Below are positions 692-22,574 of a stretch of DNA of 38,514 nt, one piece after another. The stretch spans positions 62,001 through 100,514 of the forward strand of contig CAZCRK010000001.1 of NCBI GenBank assembly GCA_964501035.1, read 5' to 3'. A program made the position numbers and the translations under genes. A model generated the notes under the pieces. It did not search any database, was not told the DNA's origin, and saw nothing but the letters and a program-made list of their open reading frames with translations. Numbering within the stretch: position 1 is the first letter of the stretch; the number at the start of each line of letters is the position of its first letter.

Positions 692-1127
692 TAATAAACT
701 CATAGAAAAAATTCAAAACATGGCACCAGATGCACAATTCCCAGCACCATTTGCAGAACAATTTAATATTAATTTTACGCAGTTTAAAGAAGGAAGTGTA
801 CATGCAGAAGTAAAATTTGATAAAGCATGGTCAAACCCATTTGGAATTGCCCATGGAGGGTTTTTGTTTACATTATTAGATGAAATTTTAGGGTCTGCAT
901 GTTGTACAGTATTAACAAAAAATATTTATAAAGATGTAAAAGCCTTAAGCACAACAAACCATGATATATTTTTTCATTCTCCTGCAAAAGATGGCGATGT
1001 GTTAGTTATTAAGGGCAGGGTGACATCTTCTCGTAAAAATATGATATTTGTTGAAGGACACATTTTCCAAAAATCAACCGGTGTATTAGTTGCAGAATCA
1101 AAGGGTATTTGGTTTGCAAAACGGTAA
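684..1127 (+). CDS. PaaI-family (hotdog fold) thioesterase
   Basis: NPFGIAHGGFLFTLLDE motif, 147 aa, overlaps the ligA stop. Confidence 0.9.
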   Translation: MIDNKLIEKIQNMAPDAQFPAPFAEQFNINFTQFKEGSVHAEVKFDKAWSNPFGIAHGGFLFTLLDEILGSACCTVLTKNIYKDVKALSTTNHDIFFHSPAKDGDVLVIKGRVTSSRKNMIFVEGHIFQKSTGVLVAESKGIWFAKR

Positions 1128-1131
1128 AATC

Positions 1132-1147
1132 CGTGATGTTTCTCACA
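1132..1147. promoter_or_regulatory. CRP/FNR- or Rex-like palindromic site
   Basis: CGTGA-tgtttc-TCACA, one mismatch to TGTGA-N6-TCACA, upstream of the putative cys-operon promoter. Confidence 0.4.
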
Positions 1148-1183
1148 AAATTAATACAAATTCATAAATTTTTAATATTTTCC

Positions 1184-1212
1184 TTGTACAATTCACTAAG
1201 TCTTAATAAGTT
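1184..1212 (+). promoter_or_regulatory. Putative sigma70 promoter of the cys leader/operon
   Basis: TTGTAC (1184-1189), 17-nt spacer, TAAGTT (1207-1212); predicted start site about 1219-1221. Confidence 0.5.
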
Positions 1213-1220
1213 TTTACCCC

Positions 1221-1328
1221 GTGATTAATGAATATTCAAATCTAAAGGCAAATGATTTAACTGTGACAACTGACCATAGCTGTTGTTGTTGCTGTTCTAT
1301 GTTCGGAGGAGGAGACTTGCCCAGATAA
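1221..1328 (+). CDS. Poly-cysteine leader peptide, 35 aa (MINEYSNLKANDLTVTTDHSCCCCCSMFGGGDLPR)
   Basis: GTG 1221 to TAA 1326-1328; five consecutive Cys codons at 1281-1295; lies between the promoter and a terminator upstream of cysteine synthase; alternative in-frame GTG at 1263. Confidence 0.8.
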   Translation: MINEYSNLKANDLTVTTDHSCCCCCSMFGGGDLPR

Positions 1329-1350
1329 AGGATTTGAATATTGATTATAT

Positions 1351-1388
1351 AACCCCTTTTGTCGGTAAGGCAAGAGGGGTTTTTTTTT
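1351..1388 (+). terminator. Intrinsic terminator (attenuator) upstream of cysM
   Basis: AACCCCTTTTGTC-ggtaa-GGCAAGAGGGGTT 13-bp stem running into a T tract, ending 11 nt before the cysM ATG. Confidence 0.9.
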
Positions 1389-1399
1389 AGAAAGAAAAA

Positions 1400-2299
1400 A
1401 TGAAAAGAAGTAATAATATATTAGATTTAATTGGAAACACACCACTTTTAGATATAAGTAATCTCTTTGACAGTGAGCAAACCAATATTTTTGCAAAAGC
1501 TGAGTGGGCAAATCCCGGAGGTTCTCTAAAAGACAGACCCGTTAAGCGCATGTTGTTAGAGGCAATTAAGGATGGAAATCTAACTAAAGATAAAACACTG
1601 ATTGACTCAAGTAGTGGAAATGCAGGCATTGCCTATTCAATGATCGGAAATGCACTAAGGTATAATGTAGAAATTGTTATCCCTGGAAATGCGAGTTTAG
1701 AACGAAAAAATCGAATGAAAGCACATGGAACAACCATTATTGAAACTGATCCAATTGAAGGCTATGATGAAGCGTTGCGTCATGTACATCAACTTGTGGA
1801 TGAGCACCCAGATAAATACTTTTTCTGTGATCAATATGCAAACGATAATAATTGGTTGGCACATTACCACACAACTGCTGAAGAAATAATTACTCAAGTT
1901 GGCGGTGAGATAAATTATTTTGTTGGGGGAGTAGGAACTGGAGGATCAATTACTGGAATTGGACGCAAACTGAAAGAAAAGTTTCCCAATATTAAAATTA
2001 TGGGTGTTCGGCCAGAAATTTGGCCCGGTATTGAGGGATTGAAACCATTGGGTTCACCAGAAGATATTGTACCCAAAATTTTTGATGAGTCTGTAGTTGA
2101 TGATTGGATTTATACAACAGCTGATGATGCCAAACATTGGGCAAACTCAATTGCGAAAAAAGGATTTTTTGTAGGTCAATCATCCGGAGCATATTTATCG
2201 GCAGTATCCAAATTGCTTGAAGATGTTTCAACTGGGACTGTAGTTACTCTGTTTAACGATTTAGGCGAACGGTATTTTAGTTCTGGGTTATGGAGTTAG
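1400..2299 (+). CDS. cysM: PLP-dependent cysteine synthase, probably sulfur-carrier (CysO)-dependent CysM type
   Basis: IGNTPL, NPGGSLKDR (PLP Lys), SSGNAG, GTGGSITG; adjacent to JAB and Ubl-MoeB genes. Confidence 0.9.
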   Translation: MKRSNNILDLIGNTPLLDISNLFDSEQTNIFAKAEWANPGGSLKDRPVKRMLLEAIKDGNLTKDKTLIDSSSGNAGIAYSMIGNALRYNVEIVIPGNASLERKNRMKAHGTTIIETDPIEGYDEALRHVHQLVDEHPDKYFFCDQYANDNNWLAHYHTTAEEIITQVGGEINYFVGGVGTGGSITGIGRKLKEKFPNIKIMGVRPEIWPGIEGLKPLGSPEDIVPKIFDESVVDDWIYTTADDAKHWANSIAKKGFFVGQSSGAYLSAVSKLLEDVSTGTVVTLFNDLGERYFSSGLWS

Positions 2300-2300
2300 T

Positions 2301-2738
2301 ATGAGCAGTATCACACTATCAAATAAAATTGTAAAGCAATTTATAACCCAAGCTGAAAGAGAATATCCATATGAATGTTGTGGTTTCATACTAGGGGAGT
2401 TTTCTGAAAATGGAACCAATGCTACTGAATATATTCCAGCTGATAATTCAAAAGGTGAAAACAGAAAACGACGTTTTTTGATAGACCCGTTAGCATACCA
2501 AAATGCTGAAGATAAAGCAGATGAATTGGGACTTTCTGTTATTAGTATTGTGCATTCGCATCCAGACCATCCCGATCACCCCTCAGAGTTTGATAGAGAA
2601 CACGCATGGCCTGGGTTTAGTTACATTATTATATCAGTCCAAAAAGGGAAATCAGTGAGCTATAAATCATGGCAATTGGTAGAAGATAGAACACAATTTA
2701 ATGAAGAAGAAATTAGTATAAAAAAGGAGGAAGAATAA
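2301..2738 (+). CDS. mec: JAB/MPN+ (M67) metallopeptidase, Mec+-like CysO-cysteine peptidase
   Basis: YPYECCG...HSHPDHPDHPSEFD JAMM motif; operon context. Confidence 0.88.
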   Translation: MSSITLSNKIVKQFITQAEREYPYECCGFILGEFSENGTNATEYIPADNSKGENRKRRFLIDPLAYQNAEDKADELGLSVISIVHSHPDHPDHPSEFDREHAWPGFSYIIISVQKGKSVSYKSWQLVEDRTQFNEEEISIKKEEE

Positions 2739-4147
2739 TGGCTAGTACATTAAAAATACCGTCACCCCTACGACGGTTCACAAACGGGCAGGCAACACTT
2801 GATGTGAGCGGGGCAACAATCCGTCATGTCTTAGACGAATTATTTAGTGAGTTTCCAGATATTAAAGGGCACCTCATTGAAGATTCAGGAGAGTTGCGTA
2901 ATTTTGTAAATATTTACATTGGGAAAGAAAGCATAAAGCATCTAGGTGGTGCAGAAGCTTCTGTTGATTCCGGTGCAGATATTCGCATTATTCCATCAAT
3001 TGCGGGGGGAGCTCCAGAGCTTTCCCCTGCTGAGCTCTCTCGGTATAGTCGGCACCTTATTCTTCCAGAGGTTGGAATTAATGGACAAAAAAAATTAAAA
3101 TCTGCAAAAGTATTGGTAGTTGGAGCTGGTGGACTAGGGAGCCCTGTTTCTTTATATCTAACTGCTGCAGGTGTAGGAACCATTGGACTAGTTGATTTTG
3201 ATATTGTTGATGAATCAAACCTGCAACGGCAAGTATTGTTTGGTGTGGATCAAGTTGGAAAATCAAAAGTAAAAAGCGCACAAGAACGTCTCGAAAATTT
3301 AAACCCTAACACAAATTTTATTTTACACGAAGAACCATTAAACTCATTAAACGCCCTTGATATTATTAAAGATTATGATATGGTTGTCGATGGCACCGAT
3401 AATTTCCCAACTCGCTACCTTGTAAACGATGCCTGTGTACTTTTAGGTAAACCAAATGTATATGGCAGTATTTACAGATTTGATGGCCAAGTTTCTGTTT
3501 TCAACCATGAAAATGGACCTTGCTATAGATGTCTATACCCGGCACCTCCTCCACCGGGTTTAGTACCCTCTTGCGCAGAAGGTGGCGTGTTGGGTGTGCT
3601 TCCGGGTATTGTAGGATGCTTGCAGGCAAATGAAGCAATAAAACTAATTTTGGGTGTTGGAGATTCCATGAAAGGTCGCTTCCTCCTCTTTGATGCGCTT
3701 GGCATGGAATTTAACGAATTGGTCGTCCGGAAAAATGATGATTGTGTGATTTGTGGGAATAACCCAAGCATCACTCAACTGATTGATTACCAAGAGTTTT
3801 GTGGAATTATTCAGGACGACCAACCCAAAATAGAAGAAATTTCTGTATCAGAATTAAAAGAAAAATGGGACAAAGAACCTTCAACCATAGTTTTAGATGT
3901 ACGAGAAGACTTTGAGCTTCAAATTGCAAAAATAGATGGTGTAATTCATATACCCATGAAACAAGTTTCTGGACACTTAGAGGAATTTGATCCTGAAAAA
4001 GAGATTATTATTATGTGTCGATCAGGGCAACGATCAGCAAAAATATGTGAAGAATTTTTAGAACACAATTTTAAAGATGTAAAGAATTTAAAAGGGGGGA
4101 TACTAGCATGGTCAGAGGAAATAGACTCATCAATACCACAATACTAA
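2738..4147 (+). CDS. moeB: MoaD/ThiS/CysO-like sulfur carrier fused to MoeB (E1-like adenylyltransferase) and rhodanese (MoeZ-like)
   Basis: aa 1-91 beta-grasp ending IIPSIAGG; then RYSRHLILPEVG, GAGGLG, SNLQRQ, CYRC, PSCAEGGV; C-terminal rhodanese CRSGQRS. Confidence 0.93.
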   Translation: MASTLKIPSPLRRFTNGQATLDVSGATIRHVLDELFSEFPDIKGHLIEDSGELRNFVNIYIGKESIKHLGGAEASVDSGADIRIIPSIAGGAPELSPAELSRYSRHLILPEVGINGQKKLKSAKVLVVGAGGLGSPVSLYLTAAGVGTIGLVDFDIVDESNLQRQVLFGVDQVGKSKVKSAQERLENLNPNTNFILHEEPLNSLNALDIIKDYDMVVDGTDNFPTRYLVNDACVLLGKPNVYGSIYRFDGQVSVFNHENGPCYRCLYPAPPPPGLVPSCAEGGVLGVLPGIVGCLQANEAIKLILGVGDSMKGRFLLFDALGMEFNELVVRKNDDCVICGNNPSITQLIDYQEFCGIIQDDQPKIEEISVSELKEKWDKEPSTIVLDVREDFELQIAKIDGVIHIPMKQVSGHLEEFDPEKEIIIMCRSGQRSAKICEEFLEHNFKDVKNLKGGILAWSEEIDSSIPQY

Positions 4148-4626
4148 AAGAGGTGTTTTCTTTTCCAGAAACTGTGAATGAATATGCAGCACGTACCGTA
4201 GCTGGGTTTGTTGTTGCATTATCAATTTTATTTTTGTGGACGGAGAATTTGTACATTCTTGGATTATTAGCATACGGTTTTTGGGCACGGGTGTTAACTG
4301 GACCAACTCTGAGCCCAATTGCATTATTGGTTACTAAGATAATTATTCCAGCTGTAGGTGAACCAAGGCTTGATTGTCCGGGTCCTCCTAAACGTTTTGC
4401 GCAGGGAATTGGAGCAATGTTTACTACATCTTCATTAATTTTGATTTTAAGTGGACATGTTGAATATGCAAACATTGCAATGAGTGTACTTGTTTTCTTT
4501 GCTAGTTTGGAATCGTTTATTGGTTTTTGTGCGGGATGTTGGATGTTTAAACAAATGATGAGTTTAGGCTGGATTCCTGAAACAGTTTGTGAAAAATGTA
4601 ATAATTTATCTTTTTCAACAAAATAA
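4108..4626 (+). CDS. DUF4395-family membrane protein (sulfur-metabolism associated); true start may be further downstream (e.g. GTG 4153)
   Basis: VNEYAAR...GPPKRFAQGIG...GFCAGC motifs, four hydrophobic segments. Confidence 0.8.
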   Translation: MVRGNRLINTTILKEVFSFPETVNEYAARTVAGFVVALSILFLWTENLYILGLLAYGFWARVLTGPTLSPIALLVTKIIIPAVGEPRLDCPGPPKRFAQGIGAMFTTSSLILILSGHVEYANIAMSVLVFFASLESFIGFCAGCWMFKQMMSLGWIPETVCEKCNNLSFSTK

Positions 4627-4627
4627 T

Positions 4628-4653
4628 GGAACTTTCTTAAATGGAGGGTAGTT
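4628..4653 (+). promoter_or_regulatory. Putative ECF-sigma promoter
   Basis: GGAAC (4628-4632)-N18-GTT (4651-4653), matching the GGAAY-N18-GTT pattern of SigR/SigH-type ECF promoters. Confidence 0.4.
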
Positions 4654-4659
4654 AATAGA

Positions 4660-4733
4660 CTACTTTCATTCTTGATTCATCTTCTCCTCCAGGTTGATGA
4701 AAAAGTGACCCCGGTTCGCCGGGGTTATTTTTT
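4660..4733 (+). ncRNA. Candidate small RNA (or structured 3' UTR) with an anti-Shine-Dalgarno loop
   Basis: Hairpin TTCATC-ttctcctccaggtt-GATGAA (4676-4701) exposing CTCCTCC, followed directly by a strong terminator. Confidence 0.4.
4701..4733 (+). terminator. Intrinsic terminator closing the cys operon / candidate sRNA
   Basis: AAAAGTGACCCCGG-ttcg-CCGGGGTTATTTTTT. Confidence 0.9.
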
Positions 4734-4750
4734 GTAACAAATTGTAACAA
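4732..4750. promoter_or_regulatory. Tandem direct repeat, candidate response-regulator site
   Basis: TTGTAACAA-a-TTGTAACAA, 10-bp period, upstream of the dockerin gene cluster. Confidence 0.45.
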
Positions 4751-4823
4751 GCCTTCAGGGCAATAATTTTTAATGTAAATTTTAGACTGGGAAAACCCTA
4801 AATTCCAAATCAAGGAGACTGAA

Positions 4824-7800
4824 ATGAGAACATCAATTTTTTTAACTCACAAAATATATACAATTTTATTATTTGCAATAATGGCATTGACTCCTCTATT
4901 TACACAAGATAATTCGCAAATGACATTCATTGAAGGGAACGTGATAGCTTGTAATGGGTGTTTGGGAGGACCAGTAGGTTGTCCAATCCCGGGTGCAAAT
5001 ATTGACGCGGTTCCGCTTAATTCTGCAACGGATGAAGCATATACGACGAATGCAGATGAAAATGGCCACTTTGCCCTAGAAGTACCTGTAGGTGCATATT
5101 CTGTAACATGCAGTCAAACAGGATGGGAAAACCAAACCCAAACTATTGAAGTTGGATATAATGGCAGTGCAATTGAGTTTTGTTTAACAGAAGTACAAGA
5201 TTTAGAAGTAGTTGCTAGTGGTCACGTATATGGTAATTACTACCCGGATCAAAACAATGCTGAACCACTTCACAATGCCACAGTTTATTTCCAATATTAT
5301 TTTGCAAGTGACATTGAACCCAGTCTTTTGCTTAGCCAACAGACCGATGAAAATGGATATTTTGAATTTTATTATCCCTATGATTCTGGGTGGACTGGTG
5401 ATTATGATTTAAGTCATTTCACATTGAGTGTTCAAGCGGAGGGATACTACAATGCAGAAATGACCTTTGAATATAATAATGCACCCATAACCCACAATTT
5501 CTTTTTAACTCCAAATGTTGAACCAACGGATGTGATATTTTCTGGAACTGTGAGTGGAAGTTTTAATGATATGTTACCTGCGTTTATACCTTTAGAAGGT
5601 GCATTGGTTGAAGTTATTTCAGGTACTGCATCGGGTGTTTATGATGTGATTTTTGAAACAGAAACAAATCATGATGGATATTTTCAATTTTTAAACAATG
5701 TTAATACTCCGTTCCCTGAAGAGGCACAAGTAAGAGTATCAAAAGATGGATATTCAACTGTTGAAGAATGGTTTGATTTTCACGAATTGCCTGTAACTCA
5801 CGATTTTTATCTAAACCATATTACGGACCCATACCCAACAACAACTGTGTTTGGACATGTAAGCGCACAACTATCACCAATGGGTCCTGTTTTTCCAATT
5901 GGCGGTGCTGTAATTGGGGCTACTCCTAGTTGGGGTGATGCACCATATTACGAAACAGAAACCAATGAAAATGGTTGGTTTGAATTAGAATTGGAAGATT
6001 CTGCAATTGGAAATGTTGAATGGCTCATTACATGTTTTACAGACTATGGCACGCAAACACAAACATTTTTAGCCTATCCTGGAGAAGAAAATGAAGTCAA
6101 TTTTCATTTTAATGCATGGGATGAACCGGTTTTACAGGCTCCTTACAATTTAACCGTTGAGCTTGTTCAAGATGCAAATCAGTGGGAGCCAACAGCTATT
6201 TTAAATTGGGAATATCCACCAACGGATGATTTCAATTTGCCAGTTTCATTTAATATTTATGCACAATACGGAGGACCCAATGGGCCCTTTGTACATACAG
6301 GAATTACTGATGTAAACCACTTTGAAATGATGATTGGAGGTTTTGTTGGTTATAATGGATGTTTCTATGTTACTGCAACGCTAAATGGACTAGAATCTGA
6401 ACCGAGTAATACTGCGTGTGTTGAAGGTTTTGATCCCGAACCTGTTTGCGAGGATTTATCTGGAATATCATTTGGTGATTGTGAAATGATAATTGGCATT
6501 GGTTGGAACGGAGAAGAATGCACATGGTTCTCTGGGTGTGGAACAGTATCCGAAGATGGTGTGGATTATTCCAATGCATTCTTTGATAGTGTTGAAGAAT
6601 GCGAAGTAGCTTGTGGCATTGAGGATGATGGACCACCTGAGTGCATTATGGATTGCCCAAGTTTTGAAGATATTGATCCCAATGAAAATGCAGATATTGC
6701 GTGTGAGTGGATAATTGATACTGTAACCAGTGACTCAGAATGCATTTCCGATTGTGATGATTATACTTTAGAAATGTTATCCGAAGTTTCTTGGGCATGC
6801 GAAATGTGTTTAGCTGGTGAATTTGAATGTGAAGACATATTTAATGATGATGATCCACATGAAAATGGTGTTATTTATGGAATGGTTGAGTATGTGTGGG
6901 GTGATGCAATTGAACTTGTTGCAGGAGCTCATATTGTAATTACTGGAATTTCATCGGATGGAACTGTCGAAGATGTCTATGAAACTGAAACGAATGAACA
7001 GGGTATGTATGAAATTGAAGTTCCTGTAGGTTCTTATCATGTTACGTGCACTGCGTATGAAGAAACTGAAACAATTGAAGCATTTGTTGAAGCTGGACAT
7101 GAAGTTCAAGTTAACTTTCAATTTGGTGAATTTTATTTCCCAACTGCTATTACTGGAATGGTATATGGTGAGTTGGAAATGCCAGAACCCATCGATGATG
7201 CTCATTTAACGATTCATTATGATAATGGTATTTTTCTTGAAACATGGACTAATGAAGGTTGGTATTGGTTAGACCTTCCAGGTGCAGGTGAATATTATGT
7301 ATCCATAGAAGCAGAGGGTTATTTCCCTGAAGATATAAATTTCTTTGCCTATGAAGGAATTAATGAAATGGACTTTTATCTGACTCCAATAGATGACTAT
7401 ATGGATCCAGAAGCAACCTTCATACTAGGAAATGCAAGTATTACCGAAGAAAATGAGGTGATTGTACCGTTGTATCTACATTCCGAAGTAGATATTGCTG
7501 GGCTTCAATTTGCAGTATGGCCTGAGCAGTATTATAACGATTTCTATTTAATGCCTTCTGGCTTAGAATCTATGAATGATTGCTTTACTGCAAACTGGAA
7601 CGAAGTATATGGTCAACTTTGGGGTATTATGTTTAGCTTAGAAGGTTGTGTGTTTGAAGCCTATGAAGAACATCATGTTGCCAACTTAGCATTTTCATCA
7701 GAGGGCTTTCCAATTCCTGGTTTAGAAATACCATTGGTATTTAATGAAACCATTGCCTCTGACCCAGATGGTAATGAAATACAGTCTGAAGGTATTGGAA

Positions 7801-8567
7801 CGATTGTCACATTTGGTATGCAAGGCGATATCAATGCGGATGGCGCAATTAACGTGATGGATATTGTTCAACTGGTGAATTTTGTTCTCAATATTGACGA
7901 ACCAACCGACTATGAATTTTGGGCAGGAGATGTAAATGTTGATGGAACACTGAATGTAATTGATGTTGTTCAAATTGTAAATATTATTTTATATGATGAT
8001 GAAATGGGTAGTGCTGGACGATTAGAAAATGGAGAAGCTCGATTGCAATACAATCAACATTCAATTATAATTCAAGGCAGTAATATTGCAGGTTTTCAAA
8101 TTGAATTTGAAGGAGAATTGCAGAGACCTCAACTACCAATGGGATGGGAGTTTGTTTCATCTGGCAGTATTGCAATTGCATATTCACTGCAGGGTGTAAT
8201 GATAAATGAACCAATTCAAATTGCATTTAATGGTGAAGTTTTATCAGCCATAATTAGTGATAGTAATGGTAGTTCAATTCCAGTTTTGATGGATGAAATA
8301 CCAGAATCAACTACATTACAAAATGCATATCCAAACCCATTTAACCCAACGACTACCATAGGTTTTACCATAGATAATGGACATGCTATGACCTTGCAAA
8401 TATTTAATATTAATGGTCAAATGGTACAATCGTTGGTGGATGGATTTGTAGAAGCTGGATTCCATGAAGTTGTATGGGATGCTACTAACTTTTCATCGGG
8501 TGTGTATTTAATACATATGGCAACACCCAATCAAGCATTCACGCAAAAATTGATGCTTGTAAAATAA
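4824..8567 (+). CDS. Large secreted multidomain protein: carboxypeptidase-regulatory-like repeats, FN3-like, Cys-rich modules, cohesin-like domain, dockerin, FlgD/T9SS-type C-terminal sorting domain
   Basis: Signal peptide; repeated TxENGxF motifs; VPLYLHSEVDIAGLQF (cohesin-like); GDINADGAINVMDIV/GDVNVDGTLNVIDVV; AYPNPFNPTT...SSGVYLI...KLMLVK; RBS AAGGAG. Confidence 0.85.
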   Translation: MRTSIFLTHKIYTILLFAIMALTPLFTQDNSQMTFIEGNVIACNGCLGGPVGCPIPGANIDAVPLNSATDEAYTTNADENGHFALEVPVGAYSVTCSQTGWENQTQTIEVGYNGSAIEFCLTEVQDLEVVASGHVYGNYYPDQNNAEPLHNATVYFQYYFASDIEPSLLLSQQTDENGYFEFYYPYDSGWTGDYDLSHFTLSVQAEGYYNAEMTFEYNNAPITHNFFLTPNVEPTDVIFSGTVSGSFNDMLPAFIPLEGALVEVISGTASGVYDVIFETETNHDGYFQFLNNVNTPFPEEAQVRVSKDGYSTVEEWFDFHELPVTHDFYLNHITDPYPTTTVFGHVSAQLSPMGPVFPIGGAVIGATPSWGDAPYYETETNENGWFELELEDSAIGNVEWLITCFTDYGTQTQTFLAYPGEENEVNFHFNAWDEPVLQAPYNLTVELVQDANQWEPTAILNWEYPPTDDFNLPVSFNIYAQYGGPNGPFVHTGITDVNHFEMMIGGFVGYNGCFYVTATLNGLESEPSNTACVEGFDPEPVCEDLSGISFGDCEMIIGIGWNGEECTWFSGCGTVSEDGVDYSNAFFDSVEECEVACGIEDDGPPECIMDCPSFEDIDPNENADIACEWIIDTVTSDSECISDCDDYTLEMLSEVSWACEMCLAGEFECEDIFNDDDPHENGVIYGMVEYVWGDAIELVAGAHIVITGISSDGTVEDVYETETNEQGMYEIEVPVGSYHVTCTAYEETETIEAFVEAGHEVQVNFQFGEFYFPTAITGMVYGELEMPEPIDDAHLTIHYDNGIFLETWTNEGWYWLDLPGAGEYYVSIEAEGYFPEDINFFAYEGINEMDFYLTPIDDYMDPEATFILGNASITEENEVIVPLYLHSEVDIAGLQFAVWPEQYYNDFYLMPSGLESMNDCFTANWNEVYGQLWGIMFSLEGCVFEAYEEHHVANLAFSSEGFPIPGLEIPLVFNETIASDPDGNEIQSEGIGTIVTFGMQGDINADGAINVMDIVQLVNFVLNIDEPTDYEFWAGDVNVDGTLNVIDVVQIVNIILYDDEMGSAGRLENGEARLQYNQHSIIIQGSNIAGFQIEFEGELQRPQLPMGWEFVSSGSIAIAYSLQGVMINEPIQIAFNGEVLSAIISDSNGSSIPVLMDEIPESTTLQNAYPNPFNPTTTIGFTIDNGHAMTLQIFNINGQMVQSLVDGFVEAGFHEVVWDATNFSSGVYLIHMATPNQAFTQKLMLVK

Positions 8568-8572
8568 ATGTG

Positions 8573-8609
8573 AAAAAAATAGAAAGTGGGAATCCTTTCC
8601 CACTTTCTA
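8573..8609. terminator. Perfect intergenic inverted repeat (stabiliser or terminator)
   Basis: TAGAAAGTGGGAA-tcct-TTCCCACTTTCTA; A tract on the 5' side only, so no U tail on the + strand. Confidence 0.7.
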
Positions 8610-8638
8610 CGACATAAACCAAAAACAAGGAGATACCA

Positions 8639-9160
8639 ATGAACAGGTTTAAACTCCAATTACTTTTTGTATTTCTCACCGTTTCCTTTTCACAGGAAAC
8701 TATTACAATCCAAGGAATGGTAGATGGTCTGTTTTACATCCCAGAATGTATGTGTGCACCTTTTGGAATTATTGACGAAAGTAATAATATAACTGCTCTG
8801 GGAACCAACCAAGACGAATCCATTGCATTTCAAGAGTATGTTGGCCAGGAAGTTTCTGTAGTTGGAATACCAAGCACGTATCCATGTACCGGATTTTGCG
8901 ACGAAGCCATGCAAGCTGTGGATGTATTTAGCATAACCCCAATTGACAGTGAACCATGCGAACCCAATTCTGATATCAATAATGATGGTATGACCAATGT
9001 TGTTGATATTGTTGTACTAGTAAACTTTATTCTTATGACAAATACTCCAACAGATGCAGAATTCTGTGCATCAGACCAAAATAGTGATGGAGTCCTGAAC
9101 GTATTGGATGTCGTAGAGTTGATATGGTCTGCTATACCAATCCTACCTATAAATCCATAA
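8639..9160 (+). CDS. Secreted protein: Cys-containing beta domain + dockerin
   Basis: Signal peptide ending VSFS/Q; SDINNDGMTNVVDIV and SDQNSDGVLNVLDVV; RBS AAGGAG. Confidence 0.85.
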   Translation: MNRFKLQLLFVFLTVSFSQETITIQGMVDGLFYIPECMCAPFGIIDESNNITALGTNQDESIAFQEYVGQEVSVVGIPSTYPCTGFCDEAMQAVDVFSITPIDSEPCEPNSDINNDGMTNVVDIVVLVNFILMTNTPTDAEFCASDQNSDGVLNVLDVVELIWSAIPILPINP

Positions 9161-9196
9161 AATGGCTATGTATGTTATTATTTAACGGAGAACATT

Positions 9197-10741
9197 ATGA
9201 AACAAATATTTATACTACTAATTTTTATGCAATTTGTATTTTCACAAGATTCATTATTGGTTCGGGGGGTTGTTGATTATGCTATCGATAATACCTGTAT
9301 GGACCAATGTTCACAATATGTTGTGAATGCTGACTTAGGATACGAAAGTACATATATTACCATCTTACCCAATCCATCAGATCTAGATGAATACGTTGGT
9401 GAACATGTTGAAATTTGGGGACATATGGTTGACTGCTTTTTATGTTCTGCCCTTCATGTTGATAACATTGAAATTTTAGATACGCAAGACACAACAGTAG
9501 AAGGTGTATTATCATTTAATAATGGGTGGTCTTTTTGCATGGATGGATGCGATGAATTCACATTAGAACTTGATGAAGAATTTAATCAATTACCAATCAT
9601 TACAGAAACGTCTATCTCCCCATGTAATGATAATCCAGGATTGCCCGAAATGGAAATTCTTGTTAGTGGAAATGAAATAACGTTTGAATGGTTGAATGGT
9701 GAGTTACAGTGTTGCATTGAACCTCACTGGAGTGGTGTTTTAGATGAGTCTAGTGCTACATATTATTTAGAAATACAAGACCAAGGTCCGCCGTGTGACT
9801 GCATGTGTTCATTCGACCAAACGGTAACGATTGGTGACTTTGCTCCAGGTGATTATGATTTGATTGTAGAATATTCAAATTATAATTGGACATTTTTTGG
9901 AGGGAGTTTTACAATAGAAGATAGTATTCAATTGGTTGAACAAACAGAGACAGATTGTTTAGATAATCGAGATGAACCCTATATTGAAGTAGAAGTAGAT
10001 GGTTCATATATGACGCTTAACTACTTTAATGCATATCAAAACTGTTGTCCAGAACTAGTTTGGGATGGATGGTTAAACGGAAACACGTTTCACACAACAT
10101 TGATCGATATTAATCCAGCTTGCTGGTGTGAATGTCATTTTAACTTATCTGCAACATTTGGTCCCTTTGAGGATGGAACTTATACCCTTGATTTTTTGGA
10201 TGGTGAATTAGGAACTCCTGAGTTTAATATAGGTGAAAGTGAACGTGAAATTATGTTTGTTACCACGCTTGGAAATCCAGAATCAATCATGGAGTTTAAC
10301 AACGAACGAGTGATTATCACAGGGTATGAAACAATCTGTGCTGAATGTAGTGGATTAGTACCAGAAACTATTGAATTAGTAGAGGAACCTAATCCATGTT
10401 TGTTGGGTGATGCAAGCTTTGATAACATTCTTAATGTATTAGATATTGTCATCATTGTGGATTGTATTTTAACTATTGACACATGCGATGAATGTATGGA
10501 TATTAATACAGATGGCAACATTAATGTATTGGATATTGTTCAAATTATCAATGTTATTTTGAATGGTCCGGAAACTCCAGAGGAATGTTTACTAGAACCC
10601 GATATAGGTCCATGTGATGGTGTTTGTCCACGTTATTATTTTGATCCCAACTCACAACAATGTGAAGTATTTTTTTGGGGATGTTGTGAAGGTGTAGTTC
10701 CGTTTGACACATTAGAATCGTGTGCAGAAATGTGTGAGTAG
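9197..10741 (+). CDS. Secreted Cys-rich protein with internal repeats, dockerin and C-terminal BPTI/Kunitz domain
   Basis: Signal peptide; GDASFDNILNVLDIV/DINTDGNINVLDIV; CLLEPDIGPC...RYYFD...CEVFFWGCC...FDTLESCAEMC. Confidence 0.85.
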   Translation: MKQIFILLIFMQFVFSQDSLLVRGVVDYAIDNTCMDQCSQYVVNADLGYESTYITILPNPSDLDEYVGEHVEIWGHMVDCFLCSALHVDNIEILDTQDTTVEGVLSFNNGWSFCMDGCDEFTLELDEEFNQLPIITETSISPCNDNPGLPEMEILVSGNEITFEWLNGELQCCIEPHWSGVLDESSATYYLEIQDQGPPCDCMCSFDQTVTIGDFAPGDYDLIVEYSNYNWTFFGGSFTIEDSIQLVEQTETDCLDNRDEPYIEVEVDGSYMTLNYFNAYQNCCPELVWDGWLNGNTFHTTLIDINPACWCECHFNLSATFGPFEDGTYTLDFLDGELGTPEFNIGESEREIMFVTTLGNPESIMEFNNERVIITGYETICAECSGLVPETIELVEEPNPCLLGDASFDNILNVLDIVIIVDCILTIDTCDECMDINTDGNINVLDIVQIINVILNGPETPEECLLEPDIGPCDGVCPRYYFDPNSQQCEVFFWGCCEGVVPFDTLESCAEMCE

Positions 10742-10856
10742 TTTGTTTAGAGTATAGGTTTTCATTCAAAATACCTCCTTATTTTACTTTCTTTGAAAAT
10801 TCATTGAAAACATAATTATTTGTTGTTGTAATTTTCACAAGAGGAGAAATTTCAAA

Positions 10857-12344
10857 ATGAAAAATTATATTCTATTATTTACAATTCAATGTATTCTAGC
10901 AAATCCATTAACCAATTGTGTAAAAGACTCACAAGATAGAACATATCGATTTCAGTTTACTTATCCTGAAACAATTCAAACAGAACACTTTAAAATTCAT
11001 TATACTACAGCCACTGCTGATAGCCAATTTATCAATGGAAATTGGCTCAATTTACAATGTAATAATAGTTATGCAGAATCAGTCATAAACTTGGCAGAAT
11101 ACTCACTTGATATATTTATGAATAAGGGATGGGAAATGATGCCACCTGATTGTGATGAATCAATTACAGATGAATCTTCACCAAATCATTGTAATAATTT
11201 TGGTGGAAATGCACTCTACGATATTTATTTGACAAATGATGCTGCTGGGCTTGTTGTCCCAGAACAACCGTACCCAGTTGCACCATTTTCAGGTGGCTAT
11301 TCAAGTTATATGATTGTATCCACTTTGTTAAATGAACATGAAACAATTCCCTCGTGGAGCAAGCATGTAGTGGCTCATGAATTGCATCATGCTATTCAGG
11401 TTCGTTACGGAATTGGAGTTTCTGGTCAACCGGGCAATTATGCATATAATGGATGGTTATTAGAACAAACTGCAACATATATGGAAAATGTGGTCTTTCC
11501 AGAATCTATTCATTTATCTACTATGCTTGGGAATTGTAATGTTGTATCCCCATTAACATATCCAGAATATAACATTGATTCTTCGGTTCAATTGTATCAA
11601 TACAGATCTGCCTTATGGCAAAAGTTTTTAGTAGAAGCTTATGGAGATTCAAGTATAATCAGGTTAATATGGGAAGGGTTTGGAAATGCATCCGAAACGG
11701 GTAATCCTGTAGATGTATTTCCAATTTATAATGATGCAATTCAATTTTCATCAACTGAAAATATTGATTTAACAAATGCATATATTGATTATTCAACATG
11801 GAGATATTTTACAGGGGATAGAACTAATATTGCATCCTTCTTTGAAGAAGCTAATTCATATTGTACAGCTTATTCAACTAGCTTGGAAGAATCACCTTTT
11901 TCACTTTCAACTCAACATGGTGGTGCTTTATTTGTTGAACTTCCATTTCAACAATCTTCAATTCGTTTTAGTTCGAATGATTACGATAAGTTAATAGTAA
12001 ACCATATAGTAAAAGATTCATTGGGGATTGTTTCATATACAACACTTGAAATAGATCAAAGCGATCAATTGTTAGGATTGAATAATCCAAACAATCTAAA
12101 TCAAGTTTTAATTATTACAAGTCAATTCACAAATGAACCAACAGATGAAATAGAATTCTCTATTTTAGATGCTCCTATAATTCAAGGTGATATCAATCAA
12201 GATGGTTTGGTAAACGTGGTAGATATAGTAGCAGCAGTTAACCTAATATTAACGGATTCATATGATAGTATTGTTGATATGAATGAAGATGGAGAGTTAA
12301 ACGTTGTTGATATTGTTTTGTTGATTAATATTATTTTAAGTTAA
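10857..12344 (+). CDS. Secreted zinc metallopeptidase (MXAN_6640-like) with C-terminal dockerin
   Basis: HFKIHYT, AHELHHAIQ, WLLEQTATYME; GDINQDGLVNVVDIV/DMNEDGELNVVDIV. Confidence 0.82.
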   Translation: MKNYILLFTIQCILANPLTNCVKDSQDRTYRFQFTYPETIQTEHFKIHYTTATADSQFINGNWLNLQCNNSYAESVINLAEYSLDIFMNKGWEMMPPDCDESITDESSPNHCNNFGGNALYDIYLTNDAAGLVVPEQPYPVAPFSGGYSSYMIVSTLLNEHETIPSWSKHVVAHELHHAIQVRYGIGVSGQPGNYAYNGWLLEQTATYMENVVFPESIHLSTMLGNCNVVSPLTYPEYNIDSSVQLYQYRSALWQKFLVEAYGDSSIIRLIWEGFGNASETGNPVDVFPIYNDAIQFSSTENIDLTNAYIDYSTWRYFTGDRTNIASFFEEANSYCTAYSTSLEESPFSLSTQHGGALFVELPFQQSSIRFSSNDYDKLIVNHIVKDSLGIVSYTTLEIDQSDQLLGLNNPNNLNQVLIITSQFTNEPTDEIEFSILDAPIIQGDINQDGLVNVVDIVAAVNLILTDSYDSIVDMNEDGELNVVDIVLLINIILS

Positions 12345-12349
12345 AAAAA

Positions 12350-13099
12350 TTGGAAGCACTCATCTTAATAATTTCAGCATTTATAACCTCCACCATATCT
12401 GCAATTTTAGGAATGGGTGGAGGTATTATACTTCTTGCAATTATGGCACTATTGCTTCCAGAAGGTTATTTAGCAATTGCGTTACATGGTGTAATCCAAC
12501 TGGTAAGTAATACAACTCGTTCTTTTGCATACCGTGAAAGTATTAACTGGAAACTCGTTCGAGAATTTTTATTCGGTGCATGCTTTGGATTGCTCCTTTC
12601 ATCCATCATTATTTTTGGGTTAATGCAGGTGATGCAGATTACCACAGCATCCGATATAAAAGTTGATTTTTTGAAACCAGCAATTGGAATTTTTGTACTC
12701 TGGTTTTTATATGGGAAAAGACTAACTCCACACCATGGAAAAAAATTTACAAAAGTAGGGCTGATGAGTGGTTTTGCAACCGTTTTTGTTGGAGCAACTG
12801 GACCTTTAATTGCACCCTATTTTTTGGATTATGGTTTGAAGAAAAAAGAAATAATTGCCAACAAAGCAGTCTGTCAAGCTATTAGCCATACAGGTAAAAT
12901 GCCTATTTTTATTTTTCTATTTCATTTGAACTATTTCGAACATTCAAAAGTACTGTTACCTTTATTAGTTGCCGTTATCATTGGTACATATTTTGGGAAA
13001 CATATTCTATCCTTTATACCCGAACATATTTTTAGATTGCTTTTTAAATCTGCACTTACACTGATGGCAATTAAACTTATTATTGATTATTGGGTTTAG
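12350..13099 (+). CDS. TauE/SafE-family (TSUP) sulfur-compound transporter
   Basis: GMGGGIIL and GATGPLIAP repeat motifs, about 8 TM segments, TTG start. Confidence 0.85.
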   Translation: MEALILIISAFITSTISAILGMGGGIILLAIMALLLPEGYLAIALHGVIQLVSNTTRSFAYRESINWKLVREFLFGACFGLLLSSIIIFGLMQVMQITTASDIKVDFLKPAIGIFVLWFLYGKRLTPHHGKKFTKVGLMSGFATVFVGATGPLIAPYFLDYGLKKKEIIANKAVCQAISHTGKMPIFIFLFHLNYFEHSKVLLPLLVAVIIGTYFGKHILSFIPEHIFRLLFKSALTLMAIKLIIDYWV

Positions 13100-13131
13100 G
13101 GTTACCGCAATAGATTACTCTGTTTAATTTT

Positions 13132-14796
13132 TTAGTACGAATCTCCATGAACCGTTGTGACAGCCCGTCCAGATGGGTCATTGAGAAGTTTAAAACTTTC
13201 ATCCCATTCTAAAGCAATTTTAGAACTACAAGCTACGGATGGTTCAGATGGTACGGTTTTGGCGGATGTTTCAGAAGGAAAGTGAGATGCAAAAATACTT
13301 CGATAATAGAATTCTTCTTTGGTATGTGGTGTATGTGTTGGAAATGTATGATGTGCATTTTCAAGTTGAATATCTGTAACATTTTTATTGACATAATCTT
13401 TGAGCGTGTCAATCCAACTATAACCAACTCCATCAGAAAATTGTTCTTTTTGTCGCCATAAAACTGACTTTGGTAAATAGTCTTCAAATGCTTTCCGAAT
13501 TACCCATTTTTCCATTCTTTCACCATGTATGAGTTTATCGTTTGGGTTTATTTTCATAGCAATTTCTATAAATTCCTTATCTAAAAATGGAACTCGCCCT
13601 TCAACACCCCATGCACTTAAAGACTTATTTGCTCTTAAACAATCATAGAGATGTAATTTCTTTAGTTTTCGCACGGTTTCATTGTGAAATTCCTGAGCAT
13701 TTGGAGCTTTATGAAAATATAGATACCCCCCAAAGATCTCATCAGCACCCTCTCCTGATAAAACCATTTTCACTCCCATTGATTTTATAACTCTTGCCAT
13801 TAAGTACATGGGTGTTGATGCTCGTACTGTTGTTACATCATAGGTTTCTAAATGGTATATCACATCTCTAATTGCATCCAACCCTTCTTGAATTGTAAAT
13901 GTTATTTCATGATGTACAGTACCAATATGGTCAGCTACAATTTTAGCATATTTCAAATCGGGAGAACCTGTTAAACCCACAGAAAAAGAGTGTAATTGAG
14001 GCCACCATGCCCCTTGCTTATCGCCAGACTCAACGCGCATATCTGAATATTTCTTAGCAATTGCTGAAATGATTGAAGAATCCAACCCCCCAGACAACAA
14101 CACACCATATGGAACATCTGTCATAAGTTGTCTATGAACTGCATTTTCCAAACCCGTTTTTAGCAAATCAATATGTGTAGAGTTTTTTTGAACATTATTG
14201 TAATTATCCCAATCAGTTGAATACCACTTTACAAGTTTTCCATCATTACTTGATAAATAATGTCCTGGAGGGAATATTTCAATTTTAGAACAGTATCCTT
14301 CGAGAGCCTTTAGTTCGGATGCAATATAAAAAGTCCCATGTTTATCCCATCCCATATAGAGTGGGGTGATTCCCATGTGATCTCGAACAATTAAATATTC
14401 ATGTGTTTTGCTATTGTAAAGAGCAAATGAAAAAATACCATTTAACTCATTTATAAAATCAATTCCTTTTGATTTGTATAATGCGAGAATTACTTCACAG
14501 TCAGATTCCGTTTTGAAATTATATTTTCCTTCAAATTGTTTTCTAAGTTCGAAATGATTATAAATTTCACCATTAACGGCTAATATTGTTTTATTTTCAT
14601 CACAGTAAAGTGGTTGTTTACCCGATGAGGGATCAACAATCGCAAGACGTTCGTGAGATAAAATTGCTTTTTCACCTGTGTAAATACCACTCCAATCTGG
14701 CCCCCGATGTCGCAACTTTCCTGACATTTCTAAAACTTGTGATCTCAATATTTCTGATTTTTCTTTTAAATCAAACGCACATACAATTCCACACAT
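13132..14796 (-). CDS. asnB: Asparagine synthetase B (glutamine-hydrolysing)
   Basis: Start reassigned to ATG 14796 so that Cys is N-terminal (MCGIV), RBS AAAGGA upstream; HRGPD, LLSGGLDSS, SGEGADE. Confidence 0.97.
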   Translation of the reverse strand: MCGIVCAFDLKEKSEILRSQVLEMSGKLRHRGPDWSGIYTGEKAILSHERLAIVDPSSGKQPLYCDENKTILAVNGEIYNHFELRKQFEGKYNFKTESDCEVILALYKSKGIDFINELNGIFSFALYNSKTHEYLIVRDHMGITPLYMGWDKHGTFYIASELKALEGYCSKIEIFPPGHYLSSNDGKLVKWYSTDWDNYNNVQKNSTHIDLLKTGLENAVHRQLMTDVPYGVLLSGGLDSSIISAIAKKYSDMRVESGDKQGAWWPQLHSFSVGLTGSPDLKYAKIVADHIGTVHHEITFTIQEGLDAIRDVIYHLETYDVTTVRASTPMYLMARVIKSMGVKMVLSGEGADEIFGGYLYFHKAPNAQEFHNETVRKLKKLHLYDCLRANKSLSAWGVEGRVPFLDKEFIEIAMKINPNDKLIHGERMEKWVIRKAFEDYLPKSVLWRQKEQFSDGVGYSWIDTLKDYVNKNVTDIQLENAHHTFPTHTPHTKEEFYYRSIFASHFPSETSAKTVPSEPSVACSSKIALEWDESFKLLNDPSGRAVTTVHGDSY

Positions 14797-14821
14797 GTGT
14801 ATTCCTTTCATATTTTATGTT

Positions 14822-14859
14822 AAAAAAAAGCCCCTTAGAAAATTTTCTAAGGGGCTTTT
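14822..14859 (-). terminator. Intrinsic terminator (attenuator) upstream of asnB
   Basis: Perfect palindrome AAAAGCCCCTTAGAAAA/TTTTCTAAGGGGCTTTT with an 8-U tail on the minus strand, 25 nt before the asnB start. Confidence 0.9.
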
Positions 14860-14878
14860 AAATCATATAACGTTGAAA

Positions 14879-14950
14879 TTACATGAATCCCCTCTCAATA
14901 TTATTATTGAGTGTGAAAAATAAATTTGTTGTATAATTTCTGTTTGTCAT
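14879..14950 (-). CDS. Asn-rich leader peptide, 23 aa (MTNRNYTTNLFFTLNNNIERGFM)
   Basis: ATG 14950 to TAA 14881-14879; 6 Asn codons including NNN at 14908-14900; stop lies 19 nt before the terminator preceding asnB. Confidence 0.7.
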   Translation of the reverse strand: MTNRNYTTNLFFTLNNNIERGFM

Positions 14951-15009
14951 CTTAAAAACTCTAGGGTTAATTTAAGTCTAAATTTTTATAAACCAAGCCA
15001 TAAAATAAT

Positions 15010-15894
15010 TTACATTTTTATTCCCAGTGTGAGCCCACTCACTATTCCACCAGCACCCAAGTTTCTAACTCCAAAATCAACTTTAAACTGTTCAAAGGAT
15101 AATCCAACTCCCGCACTAAGGCCTGCAAAAAAGTCGCTACCATATTCACCGGTTTGTAGGTTAGATTTGAAATTTGATGAACTCACTCGGAGTTTGAATG
15201 CACGCGACCCAAATTCAATGCTCCCTATAAAATGGGATTCATCGATAAAAGCATATTGTCGTGCATGAATAATTAACATTGCAGGGAGATGTTGAGGTTT
15301 GTATGAAACTGATACTTGCGTAAATTTTGGTAAATTCTCAACTGAACCCAGATATGGATCAATTACAATTCCCAAATTTTCAAGCGAAATGCTTACTCCC
15401 ATTTTTTGATTAAAACTGTGCGAATGTATTCGAAATGATGATGATATTATTTGAGAAGAATAATTAGATATATTACTTTTTATGTATGAAACATTTCCCC
15501 CCACCCAGACAAAATTCTGAAAAATAGAATTATATTCGACATTTAACAAAATATCTTGAGCTTTAAAGTAATTATCTTCATTATCCATGTCTTCAACAAA
15601 CGTTCCATAATCCATTGATATTGCCGAAATTGAAAATATAGAATTTCTTTTTATTTGTTTAAATGCGAAGGATTGAAACGCGATGTCCTGAGGGTATTGT
15701 AAATAACTAAAGCTATATGTATTATTGACCCCATCAACGATGTTAGCCCCTCTCAAATTACATGGCAATTCAGTAAAAGAACTGGCTGAAATTGAAAGAG
15801 CTCGAGCATTATGTGGAAGCTCCAAAATAGAGTAACTTGATTGAGATATAACTATTGAGATAAAAACAAAGTGAATGAATTGATTAATCTTCAT
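15010..15894 (-). CDS. PorV/PorQ-like outer-membrane beta-barrel protein
   Basis: Signal peptide then YSILELPHNARALS N-terminal motif, MDYGTF, alternating beta strands. Confidence 0.65.
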   Translation of the reverse strand: MKINQFIHFVFISIVISQSSYSILELPHNARALSISASSFTELPCNLRGANIVDGVNNTYSFSYLQYPQDIAFQSFAFKQIKRNSIFSISAISMDYGTFVEDMDNEDNYFKAQDILLNVEYNSIFQNFVWVGGNVSYIKSNISNYSSQIISSSFRIHSHSFNQKMGVSISLENLGIVIDPYLGSVENLPKFTQVSVSYKPQHLPAMLIIHARQYAFIDESHFIGSIEFGSRAFKLRVSSSNFKSNLQTGEYGSDFFAGLSAGVGLSFEQFKVDFGVRNLGAGGIVSGLTLGIKM

Positions 15895-20859: not shown

Positions 20860-20874
20860 TGTATCCTCCTTTTG

Positions 20875-22458: not shown

Positions 22459-22517
22459 TATTCCCTATTTGTTAAGTAATGTGGTTAATTTCTACAAAAA
22501 AGTACTGTGAGTATATT

Positions 22518-22570
22518 GTAAAATTATAGTAAATTTTACAGTTAAAATTTTACAGTGTAAATTTTACAGT
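22518..22570. promoter_or_regulatory. Repeated operator-like sites in the aceB/regulator divergent region
   Basis: AAATTTTACAGT exact at 22531, 22545 and 22559 (14-bp period); contains the palindrome TGTAAA-t-TTTACA. Confidence 0.75.
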
Positions 22571-22574
22571 TAGT

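Follow-up and report, generated by a model that had tools for sequence, protein, structure and literature searches.

Predicted leader-peptide attenuators with cysteine and asparagine codon runs before cysteine and asparagine synthase genes of an uncultured marine bacterium

Ribosome-mediated attenuation through leader peptides is textbook knowledge for tryptophan (Trp), histidine (His), leucine (Leu), threonine (Thr), phenylalanine (Phe) and isoleucine/valine (Ile/Val) in Proteobacteria, where the classical attenuators trpL, hisL, thrL, leuL, pheL and ilvL are represented by Rfam families such as Trp_leader and His_leader. In Firmicutes, T-box leaders sense uncharged tRNA-Asn or tRNA-Cys by binding the tRNA directly, with no need for translation, and attenuators described by Vitreschak and colleagues in 2004 reportedly include some from Bacteroidetes/Chlorobi. 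Here we describe two leaders in a stretch of 38,514 nucleotides (nt), called the window below (GenBank assembly GCA_964501035.1, contig CAZCRK010000001.1, positions 62,001 to 100,514). One consists of a short open reading frame (sORF) with a run of cysteine (Cys) codons and an intrinsic terminator before a cysteine synthase operon that starts with a cysM-like gene; the other consists of an asparagine (Asn)-rich sORF and a terminator before the asparagine synthase gene asnB. Judged from sequence, it is reasonably probable that both elements are classical ribosome-mediated (leader-peptide) transcription attenuators.

Attenuation on Cys codons is not new in itself, having been published for Actinobacteria and for cysS of Rhodobacterales. 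Mycobacteria carry polycysteine leaderless sORFs, and the case studied unmasks a ribosome-binding site, that is, it works by translational attenuation (Canestrari et al. 2020, 10.1101/834739); the Cys leader peptides of actinobacteria have no obvious terminators (Seliverstov et al. 2005, PMC1262725). The uORFC-8-2 motif upstream of cysS in Rhodobacterales combines tandem Cys codons with an intrinsic terminator, and ribosome-mediated attenuation is its predicted mode of action (Brewer et al. 2021, PMC8632094); a study of Flavobacterium psychrophilum mentions leader-peptide attenuators at ilvE and hisG (Guerin et al. 2021, PMC9723704). A literature search that had most subscription journals outside it found no published description of an Asn leader peptide, nor of poly-Cys leaders in Bacteroidota or Marinimicrobia.

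The genome that holds the window (1.87 Mb in 167 contigs, about 33-35% G+C, 95.7% complete) belongs to an uncultured marine lineage, a Marinimicrobia-like order of the FCB group. Among proteins of named organisms, the one closest to its CysM comes from Candidatus Neomarinimicrobiota, at 75% identity, and Pfam detects type-IX secretion tails on several of its proteins.

Conservation and structure of the cysteine leader

The Cys leader, whose parts are located in Table 1, recurs before cysM across the order. Among 41 relatives, 14 genomes have cysM, and a poly-Cys sORF with a terminator precedes 11 of these 14 orthologues; when all 74 genomes of the order were included, a poly-Cys sORF, a hairpin and a T run were present before 17 of 24 orthologues. 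Counted by family, the leader occurs in 13/15 cases in f1, 1/1 in f2, 2/2 in f3, 2/2 in f4 and 0/5 in f5. Across families, the leaders share 3-6 Cys codons in a row and a stop about ten codons on, together with a G+C-rich hairpin and T run located 1-42 nt before cysM, and the rest of the peptide varies. Within family f1, an NTG start is invariant at one alignment column in all 12 leaders aligned (GTG or TTG in nine of them), and a Gly-Gly-Gly-x-Leu-Pro peptide tail is partly kept.

The same arrangement was found beyond the order. In a collection of species-representative genomes, 8 of 71 cysteine-synthase homologue loci carry a poly-Cys sORF; one of the eight belongs to the sister species, and the other seven come, according to their record titles, from Saprospiraceae, Cyclobacteriaceae, Agaribacillus, Bacteroidales, Puia, Lewinellaceae and Phototrophicaceae, that is, from six Bacteroidota records and one Chloroflexota record. 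Their Cys runs are 3-7 codons long, and each is followed by a hairpin of -14.7 to -22.4 kcal/mol and a run of six or seven T. Since seven cysteine-synthase loci outside the order share this arrangement, the Cys element is not peculiar to the host lineage; it is a well-conserved, cross-phylum leader without a name. No Rfam family matches at gathering score anywhere in the window; with a permissive threshold on the two leaders, the best sub-threshold matches are His_leader (RF00514), at 31 of the 49 bits needed, and Phe_leader (RF01859), at 20 of 55 bits.

Codon runs of this kind are rare in the background of the genome. We collected 846 ATG-started sORFs of 12-45 amino acids from 568 intergenic regions on both strands, and none of them contains three consecutive Cys codons, which excludes a chance origin for the Cys leader. 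By blastn, neither the Cys nor the Asn leader has a paralogue elsewhere in the genome. One other candidate was considered and set aside: a nine-codon sORF at C43:579-608 (minus strand) has three Cys codons and a weak hairpin and precedes a gene for a secreted protein; since the sister species has not retained these Cys codons, it is likely a product of chance.

The local features agree with the layout of an attenuator. The leader folds at -51.4 kcal/mol (z = -3.60), and 0 of 200 shuffles fold as well. Its terminator hairpin ranks first among the terminator-like sites that a consensus scan finds between positions 1 and 17000 of the window; as a class, such sites are not enriched there (10 found, 10.1 ± 4.0 expected). 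Inspection by eye shows that both promoter-like elements recur with equal spacing upstream of related Cys leaders and that the sORF begins only 5 nt past the -10-like element; a very short or absent 5' untranslated region is suggested by the sequence. The terminator ends 11 nt before the cysM start and leaves the start codon outside the hairpin, and no promoter was seen by eye between the two.

In seawater, a variant contig found in two metagenome runs has single-nucleotide deletions at 1362 and 1374, one in each arm of the Cys terminator, as well as a T inserted behind 1344, and the hairpin is preserved. The paired deletions are a small natural compensatory change.

Comparison of the leaders brings out conserved pairing outside the terminator as well. 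RNAalifold, applied to seven leaders, returned the terminator and a long-range helix, GGCAAA/UUUGCC, with a compensatory change. A structure of our own design, made up of two long-range helices (P1 and P2) and the terminator, was then scored on 12 leaders of family f1. In this alignment 86.1% of cells are paired, a value reached by 0 of 500 shuffles, and controls with the structure slid along the alignment gave 36-56%; the covariation score is 0.156 versus 0.126, and 1 of 500 shuffles reaches it. Taken separately, P2 has 93% of its cells paired and shows pairs of three types at one position, P1 is paired in 77% of cells despite three misaligned rows, and the terminator is paired in 90% of cells.

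These helices provide for alternative folds. Region 2, which contains the 3' strands of P1 and P2, is predicted to pair either with region 1, forming P1/P2, or with region 3, and pairing of region 3 with region 4 would form the terminator, as in the classical scheme. More exactly, positions 1317-1331 can alternatively pair with the 5' arm of the terminator, giving a predicted antiterminator, and the partner strand differs by clade, being GGAGGAGG, AAAGGGG or a UUGCC...AAAGG stretch. We placed a ribosome on 11 Cys leaders in silico. With the ribosome on the Cys codons, the free segment is predicted to pair with 7-10 of the 13-15 bases of the terminator 5' arm, which holds for each of the 11 leaders in one or more of the stall positions. 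Once the ribosome is moved to the stop codon, just 0-5 arm bases pair in these leaders.

The asparagine leader and the predicted mechanism

The Asn leader lies on the reverse strand, before asnB (Table 1). Its sORF has Asn at codons 3, 5, 9, 15, 16 and 17. The leader has a minimum free energy of -36.5 kcal/mol (z = -6.26), reached by 0 of 200 shuffles, and the hairpin scores -22.2 kcal/mol in our own terminator scan. An antiterminator together with an inner hairpin is predicted at -15.3 kcal/mol and would form only when the ribosome stalls at the first AAT codon of the run, and a ribosome at the sORF stop would cover the AGAGGGG strand and leave no antiterminator pairing. Contigs from four DNA runs that cover 1000-15200 are of the same strain, and no variant is listed in 14800-14950; a search for RNA runs that contain the stretch returned none.

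In its geometry the Asn leader matches the Cys leader and the Trp leader of the same genome. The distances from stop codon to hairpin are 22 nt (Cys), 19 nt (Asn) and 24 nt (Trp), those from hairpin to gene are 18, 14 and 17 nt, respectively, and by eye the start of the sORF 3 nt past a -10-like element resembles the other two leaders. Between the end of the terminator's T run and the asnB ATG lie 25 nt, and since this gap holds nothing promoter-like by eye, asnB must be transcribed by read-through of the terminator. The genome encodes asparaginyl-tRNA synthetase (AsnRS; 504 bits, with the cut-off at 342.6), and GatB_N was not found in the five genomes searched, so that free Asn determines the charging of tRNA-Asn. 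No Asn leader was found before asnS, which follows another gene after about 25 nt.

The leader sits on DNA that the sister species lacks. There, the TauE and porin-like genes stand convergent and 27 nt apart, the cassette of asnB, terminator, sORF and 60 nt of upstream DNA is missing, and no asnB match was found in that species; the arrangement of the flanking genes marks the segment as an indel specific to this genome. The closest AsnB homologues, at 70-78% identity, are in metagenome contigs with Bacteroidota-type promoters, whereas genomes of the same family reach only about 60%, which suggests horizontal gain of asnB. In most of 73 metagenome asnB loci (those of 80 retained that include the N-terminus and upstream DNA), a TAnnTTTG-type promoter lies about 35 nt upstream.

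For both elements we propose the following course, in which translation of the sORF, stalling, the antiterminator switch and the response to starvation are predicted steps. A promoter just upstream would fire into the sORF, and RNA polymerase would then meet a strong intrinsic terminator located 11-25 nt before the biosynthetic gene. Because of this position, which leaves no space for a promoter behind the terminator, read-through would be the only way to transcribe the gene. With an ample supply of charged tRNA-Cys (or tRNA-Asn), the ribosome would reach the stop codon of the sORF and cover the strand complementary to the terminator 5' arm, the terminator would form and transcription would end. 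When the cognate aminoacyl-tRNA is scarce, the ribosome would stall on the run of Cys (or Asn) codons and leave the downstream strand free to pair with the terminator 5' arm as an antiterminator, and the cysM-mec-cysO operon (or asnB) would be transcribed. The Cys leader also has P1 and P2, through which the beginning of its sORF pairs with the surroundings of the stop codon; without translation of the leader, these helices would enforce termination.

Table 1. Positions in the window of the two leaders, their proposed functional parts and the genes they precede.
Feature	Position	Strand	Basis
Cys leader, promoter-like elements: CTTGTA (1183-1188) and TAAnAGTTT-like -10 (1204-1215)	1183..1215	+	by eye
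Cys leader sORF, GTG start, 35 codons + TAA	1221..1328	+	open reading frame (ORF) listing
Region 1: 5' strands of long-range helices P1 (1231-1242) and P2 (1247-1252)	1231..1252	+	folding, alignment
Five consecutive Cys codons TGT TGT TGT TGC TGT (codons 21-25), proposed stall site	1281..1295	+	sequence/ORF listing
Region 2: P2 3' strand (1317-1321), stop codon (1326-1328), P1 3' strand (1330-1342)	1317..1342	+	folding, alignment
Cys intrinsic terminator, 13-base-pair (bp) stem (1351-1381) + T9 run	1351..1388	+	terminator scan, fold
Operon under the Cys leader (cysM-mec-cysO + DUF4395)	1400..4626	+	ORF listing + Pfam
PALP cysteine synthase, CysM-like	1400-2299	+	ORF listing + Pfam
Prok-JAB/Mec-like protein	2301-2738	+	ORF listing + Pfam
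ThiS-ThiF-rhodanese fusion, CysO/MoeZ-like	2738-4147	+	ORF listing + Pfam
DUF4395	4108-4626	+	ORF listing + Pfam
Segment absent from the sister species (asnB, terminator, sORF, 60 nt upstream)	13100..15009	.	genome comparison
asnB, glutamine-hydrolysing asparagine synthase, GATase_7 + Asn_synthase, start M-C-G at 14796	13132..14796	-	ORF listing + Pfam
Asn intrinsic terminator, 15-bp stem + T8	14822..14859	-	fold, own terminator scan
Candidate antiterminator strand AGAGGGG	14889..14895	-	pairs with CCCCUU of the terminator 5' arm
Three consecutive AAT (Asn) codons 15-17, within a 7-bp hairpin, proposed stall site	14900..14908	-	sequence, fold
Asn leader sORF, ATG start, 23 codons + TAA, 6 Asn codons	14879..14950	-	ORF listing
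-10-like element TAGAGTTTTT, 3 nt before the Asn sORF start	14954..14963	-	by eye, putative

Gene context and attenuation across the genome and the order

The genes downstream of the Cys leader form a cysteine operon of the CysO-thiocarboxylate type. The gene at 2738-4147 encodes a single protein of 469 amino acids in which a CysO-like sulfur carrier, ThiS, is joined to the activating enzyme ThiF and to a rhodanese domain; it shares the operon with the CysM-like and Mec-like genes, and its end is overlapped by the DUF4395 gene. An initial annotation of the window had seen a leader with cognate codons and a terminator at both the Cys and the Asn locus, no adjacent regulator gene at either, and no other dedicated amino-acid synthase locus in the window. 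All of this is borne out: sORFs and hairpins were located at both loci, no further amino-acid synthase locus was found in the window, and Pfam detects no regulator gene adjoining the cysM or asnB locus, the neighbours being a thioesterase, the LigA C-terminus, DUF4395, TauE, one protein without a Pfam family and Peptidase_MA_2.

A genome-wide scan, which the same annotation had called for, agrees with the presence of leaders at amino-acid genes. Simple ORF calls gave 1630 genes, and 583 upstream regions of at least 70 nt were examined. A terminator-like hairpin lies on the strand of the gene in 74 of the 583, and in 40 cases it is within 70 nt of the start. By Pfam, four of these 40 genes serve amino-acid synthesis (cysM, asnB, trpE and a carbamoyl-phosphate synthase fragment) and the other 36 include none for amino-acid biosynthesis; a cognate sORF is carried by three of the four, namely cysM, asnB and trpE. 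The Trp leader before trpE (contig C19, ~3290-3425) is classical, with two adjacent Trp codons, a 12-bp antiterminator and a terminator.

Across the order, a Trp-containing sORF and a terminator lie directly upstream of 14 of 16 trpE loci; of the other two, one has a Trp leader about 140 nt upstream and one has none. hisG scores above its family cut-off in 4 of 41 genomes, all of family f5, and an sORF with a run of 4-7 His codons followed by a terminator is present at all four hisG loci. LeuA_dimer was found in 4 of 41 genomes of the order, and neither HisG nor LeuA_dimer was found in the genome studied here; most other amino-acid pathways have been lost from the lineage. For the pathways retained, the order relies on leader-peptide attenuation.

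The broader proposal of the initial annotation, that the lineage uses attenuation throughout, in place of protein regulators and for an expanded set of amino acids, stands only in part. Conservation of Cys, Trp and His leaders in the order supports lineage-wide use, but no amino acid is added to the set beyond Cys and possibly Asn, and protein regulators are still used. Their replacement is contradicted by an Lrp/AsnC-type regulator (C25:16889-17356, minus strand) that is the first gene of a hom/met operon holding a pyridoxal-phosphate-dependent enzyme of Cys/Met metabolism and homoserine dehydrogenase. No cognate sORF was found in the neighbourhood of ilvC or at the hom/met operon.

Other parts of the window offered separate observations. 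The gene at 9197-10741 (plus strand) encodes a protein of 514 amino acids with a C-terminal Kunitz/BPTI domain (E = 3.8e-10), and dockerin type I domains as well as type-IX secretion tails occur on secreted proteins nearby. In the same dockerin/Kunitz region, at 7879-10543, some seawater-metagenome contigs jump from 8000 to 10522 (about 2.5 kb) with 38 other letters in between, a structural variation between strains. At 19570-24146, isocitrate lyase and malate synthase genes adjoin a divergent HTH_3-DUF3612 regulator and make up a glyoxylate-shunt module with its own protein regulator.

Alternative explanations and comparison with known leaders

We predict with high confidence that the Cys element is a ribosome-mediated transcription attenuator, and for the Asn element the balance leans modestly towards a working Asn sensor. 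Several observations weigh against these predictions. On the Cys side, 7 of the 24 orthologous cysM loci have no Cys leader. Complementarity between the 5' and 3' flanks in family f1 amounts to -15 to -29 kcal/mol, with 0-50 of 300 shuffles reaching the observed value, but it is clearly above shuffles only in part of the family, and in the other families it is not distinctive (37-188 of 300); the Cys antiterminator of this genome is not distinctive (70 of 300 shuffles). Moreover, the Cys codons sit between regions 1 and 2, outside region 1, and for this reason a single stalled ribosome does not itself mask region 1; to keep P1/P2 from forming during stalling, the model has to assume steric hindrance or a second ribosome queued behind the first. 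One could suppose instead that the poly-Cys sORF works on translation, freeing the cysM ribosome-binding site, or that its peptide acts in trans, in either case not via termination. Polycysteine leaderless sORFs of mycobacteria do unmask a downstream ribosome-binding site (10.1101/834739), and partial conservation of the Gly-Gly-Gly-x-Leu-Pro tail in family f1 would fit a functional peptide. We nevertheless regard this as very unlikely, given that the G+C-rich hairpin and T run that follow all 17 leaders of the order and all seven outside it are the signature of an intrinsic terminator, and that the hairpin here excludes the cysM start codon. The conserved tail, in turn, coincides with the conserved RNA-pairing nucleotides GGAGGAGG and UUGCC, so its conservation need not be selected for itself. 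Sensing by an RNA-binding protein or a small-molecule riboswitch, with the sORFs incidental, could be argued from the highly structured Cys leader and from sub-threshold Rfam matches to PyrR-binding, L10-leader and trpB-motif models. These matches all span the terminator hairpin and none reaches gathering score, and the sole feature kept across families of dissimilar sequence is the in-frame run of cognate codons, as ribosome sensing predicts; this explanation seems to us exceedingly improbable.

A more serious alternative concerns the Asn element, namely that only the Cys element senses its amino acid. The Asn-rich sORF would then be a chance product of AT-rich DNA, the hairpin would be the terminator of the upstream gene or an insulator of the cassette, and asnB would be transcribed through leaky read-through or from an unrecognised promoter. 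An Asn-rich sORF with a terminator was found before none of seven asnB genes of relatives (40-60% identity), at none of the 73 metagenome loci (70-78% identity) and at none of 28 asnB loci from 401 genomes of the phylum, so that the leader is a singleton against 108 other loci. The conservation that the initial annotation had proposed to look for is thus present for the Cys leader, at the cysM loci counted above, and absent for the Asn leader. Since the Asn leader is conserved nowhere, conservation lends no backing to the view of that annotation that the two matches support each other. In the intergenic sORFs of this genome, put here at 33% G+C, Asn ranks sixth among the residues (6.4%); the antiterminator is weak, with just 6 bp, and its number of paired arm bases is equalled in 137 of 300 shuffles; the consensus terminator scan does not list the hairpin; and by eye no -35-like hexamer precedes the sORF at the spacing of the Cys and Trp leaders. 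The gene upstream of the sORF is co-directional and ends 150 nt before the hairpin, which could be its terminator, but the copy of this gene in the sister species has no such hairpin, and an inherited terminator is thereby set aside. Among the 846 background sORFs, five have three consecutive Asn codons, seven have at least six Asn, and three, including the Asn leader, have both. The two others as Asn-rich among 845, on contigs C31 and C89, precede unrelated genes, with no terminator and no Asn-related gene, and the odds of such an sORF by chance are a few in a thousand, with its position not yet counted. Taking these together with the short gap between T run and asnB and a geometry that equals what the genome's conserved Cys and Trp leaders show, we consider this alternative less likely than not, if clearly likelier than the two treated before it.

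Two readings are best stated jointly, and we hold the pair to be about as probable as a coin toss: that leaders of a poly-Cys sORF and a terminator are an unnamed cross-phylum class for cysteine synthases, including those of the CysO-thiocarboxylate pathway, and that the Asn leader is the first asparagine-sensing leader-peptide attenuator, arisen or recruited within one genus, on an asnB cassette missing from the sister species. The mechanism itself is textbook; what merits testing at the bench is how widely the Cys leader occurs and the possibility of an Asn leader. A terminator-based poly-Cys leader at cysteine synthase operons of an uncultured marine order and several Bacteroidota families gives annotators a simple, reliable signature, and it makes the regulation of sulfur and cysteine approachable in bacteria that are abundant in the ocean but resist cultivation. 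A working Asn leader would widen the set of amino acids sensed by attenuation, and its cassette would be a dated case of a newly acquired gene on which an attenuator arose; a lineage already using Trp, His and Cys attenuation could then quickly fit a new biosynthetic gene with a cognate attenuator.

Compared with known systems, the two leaders would share with T-boxes their input, the charging of the cognate tRNA, and their output, read-through of a terminator; no T-box match was found in the window or the leaders by Rfam at either gathering or permissive score. The F. psychrophilum attenuators are similar in their FCB-group host and in having an sORF and a terminator upstream of amino-acid operons. 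They differ in that the cases compared here serve branched-chain amino acids and His, and supplement file 8 of that study contains neither cysK nor cysteine synthase as a term (PMC9723704). The uORFC-8-2 motif likewise has an upstream ORF with tandem Cys codons and then an intrinsic terminator, yet it controls cysS in Alphaproteobacteria, has two Cys codons instead of 3-7 and has a different structure. With the Cys leaders of mycobacteria and actinobacteria, the leaders here have in common Cys runs in an unannotated sORF at the 5' end (here a predicted one) of transcripts of cysteine-metabolism operons and a proposed sensing of tRNA-Cys charging by ribosome stalling. They differ in phylum, in the lack of sequence similarity and in the strong intrinsic terminator after every leader; what follows the Cys sORF of this genome is a hairpin with a T run that stops short of the cysM start, and not a structure of the mycobacterial type.

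The classical attenuators remain the nearest model. Unlike them, the elements described here would sense Cys and possibly Asn, and they occur in a Marinimicrobia-like order of the FCB group; the regulatory codons of the Cys leader lie between regions 1 and 2 instead of within region 1, and the sORF begins a few nt past a -10-like element, commonly with the GTG or TTG starts noted for family f1. Like them, each combines an sORF that contains several cognate codons in a row with an intrinsic terminator placed directly in front of the operon, and the predicted 1:2, 2:3 and 3:4 alternative pairings would be decided, as in the classical case, by the position of the ribosome.

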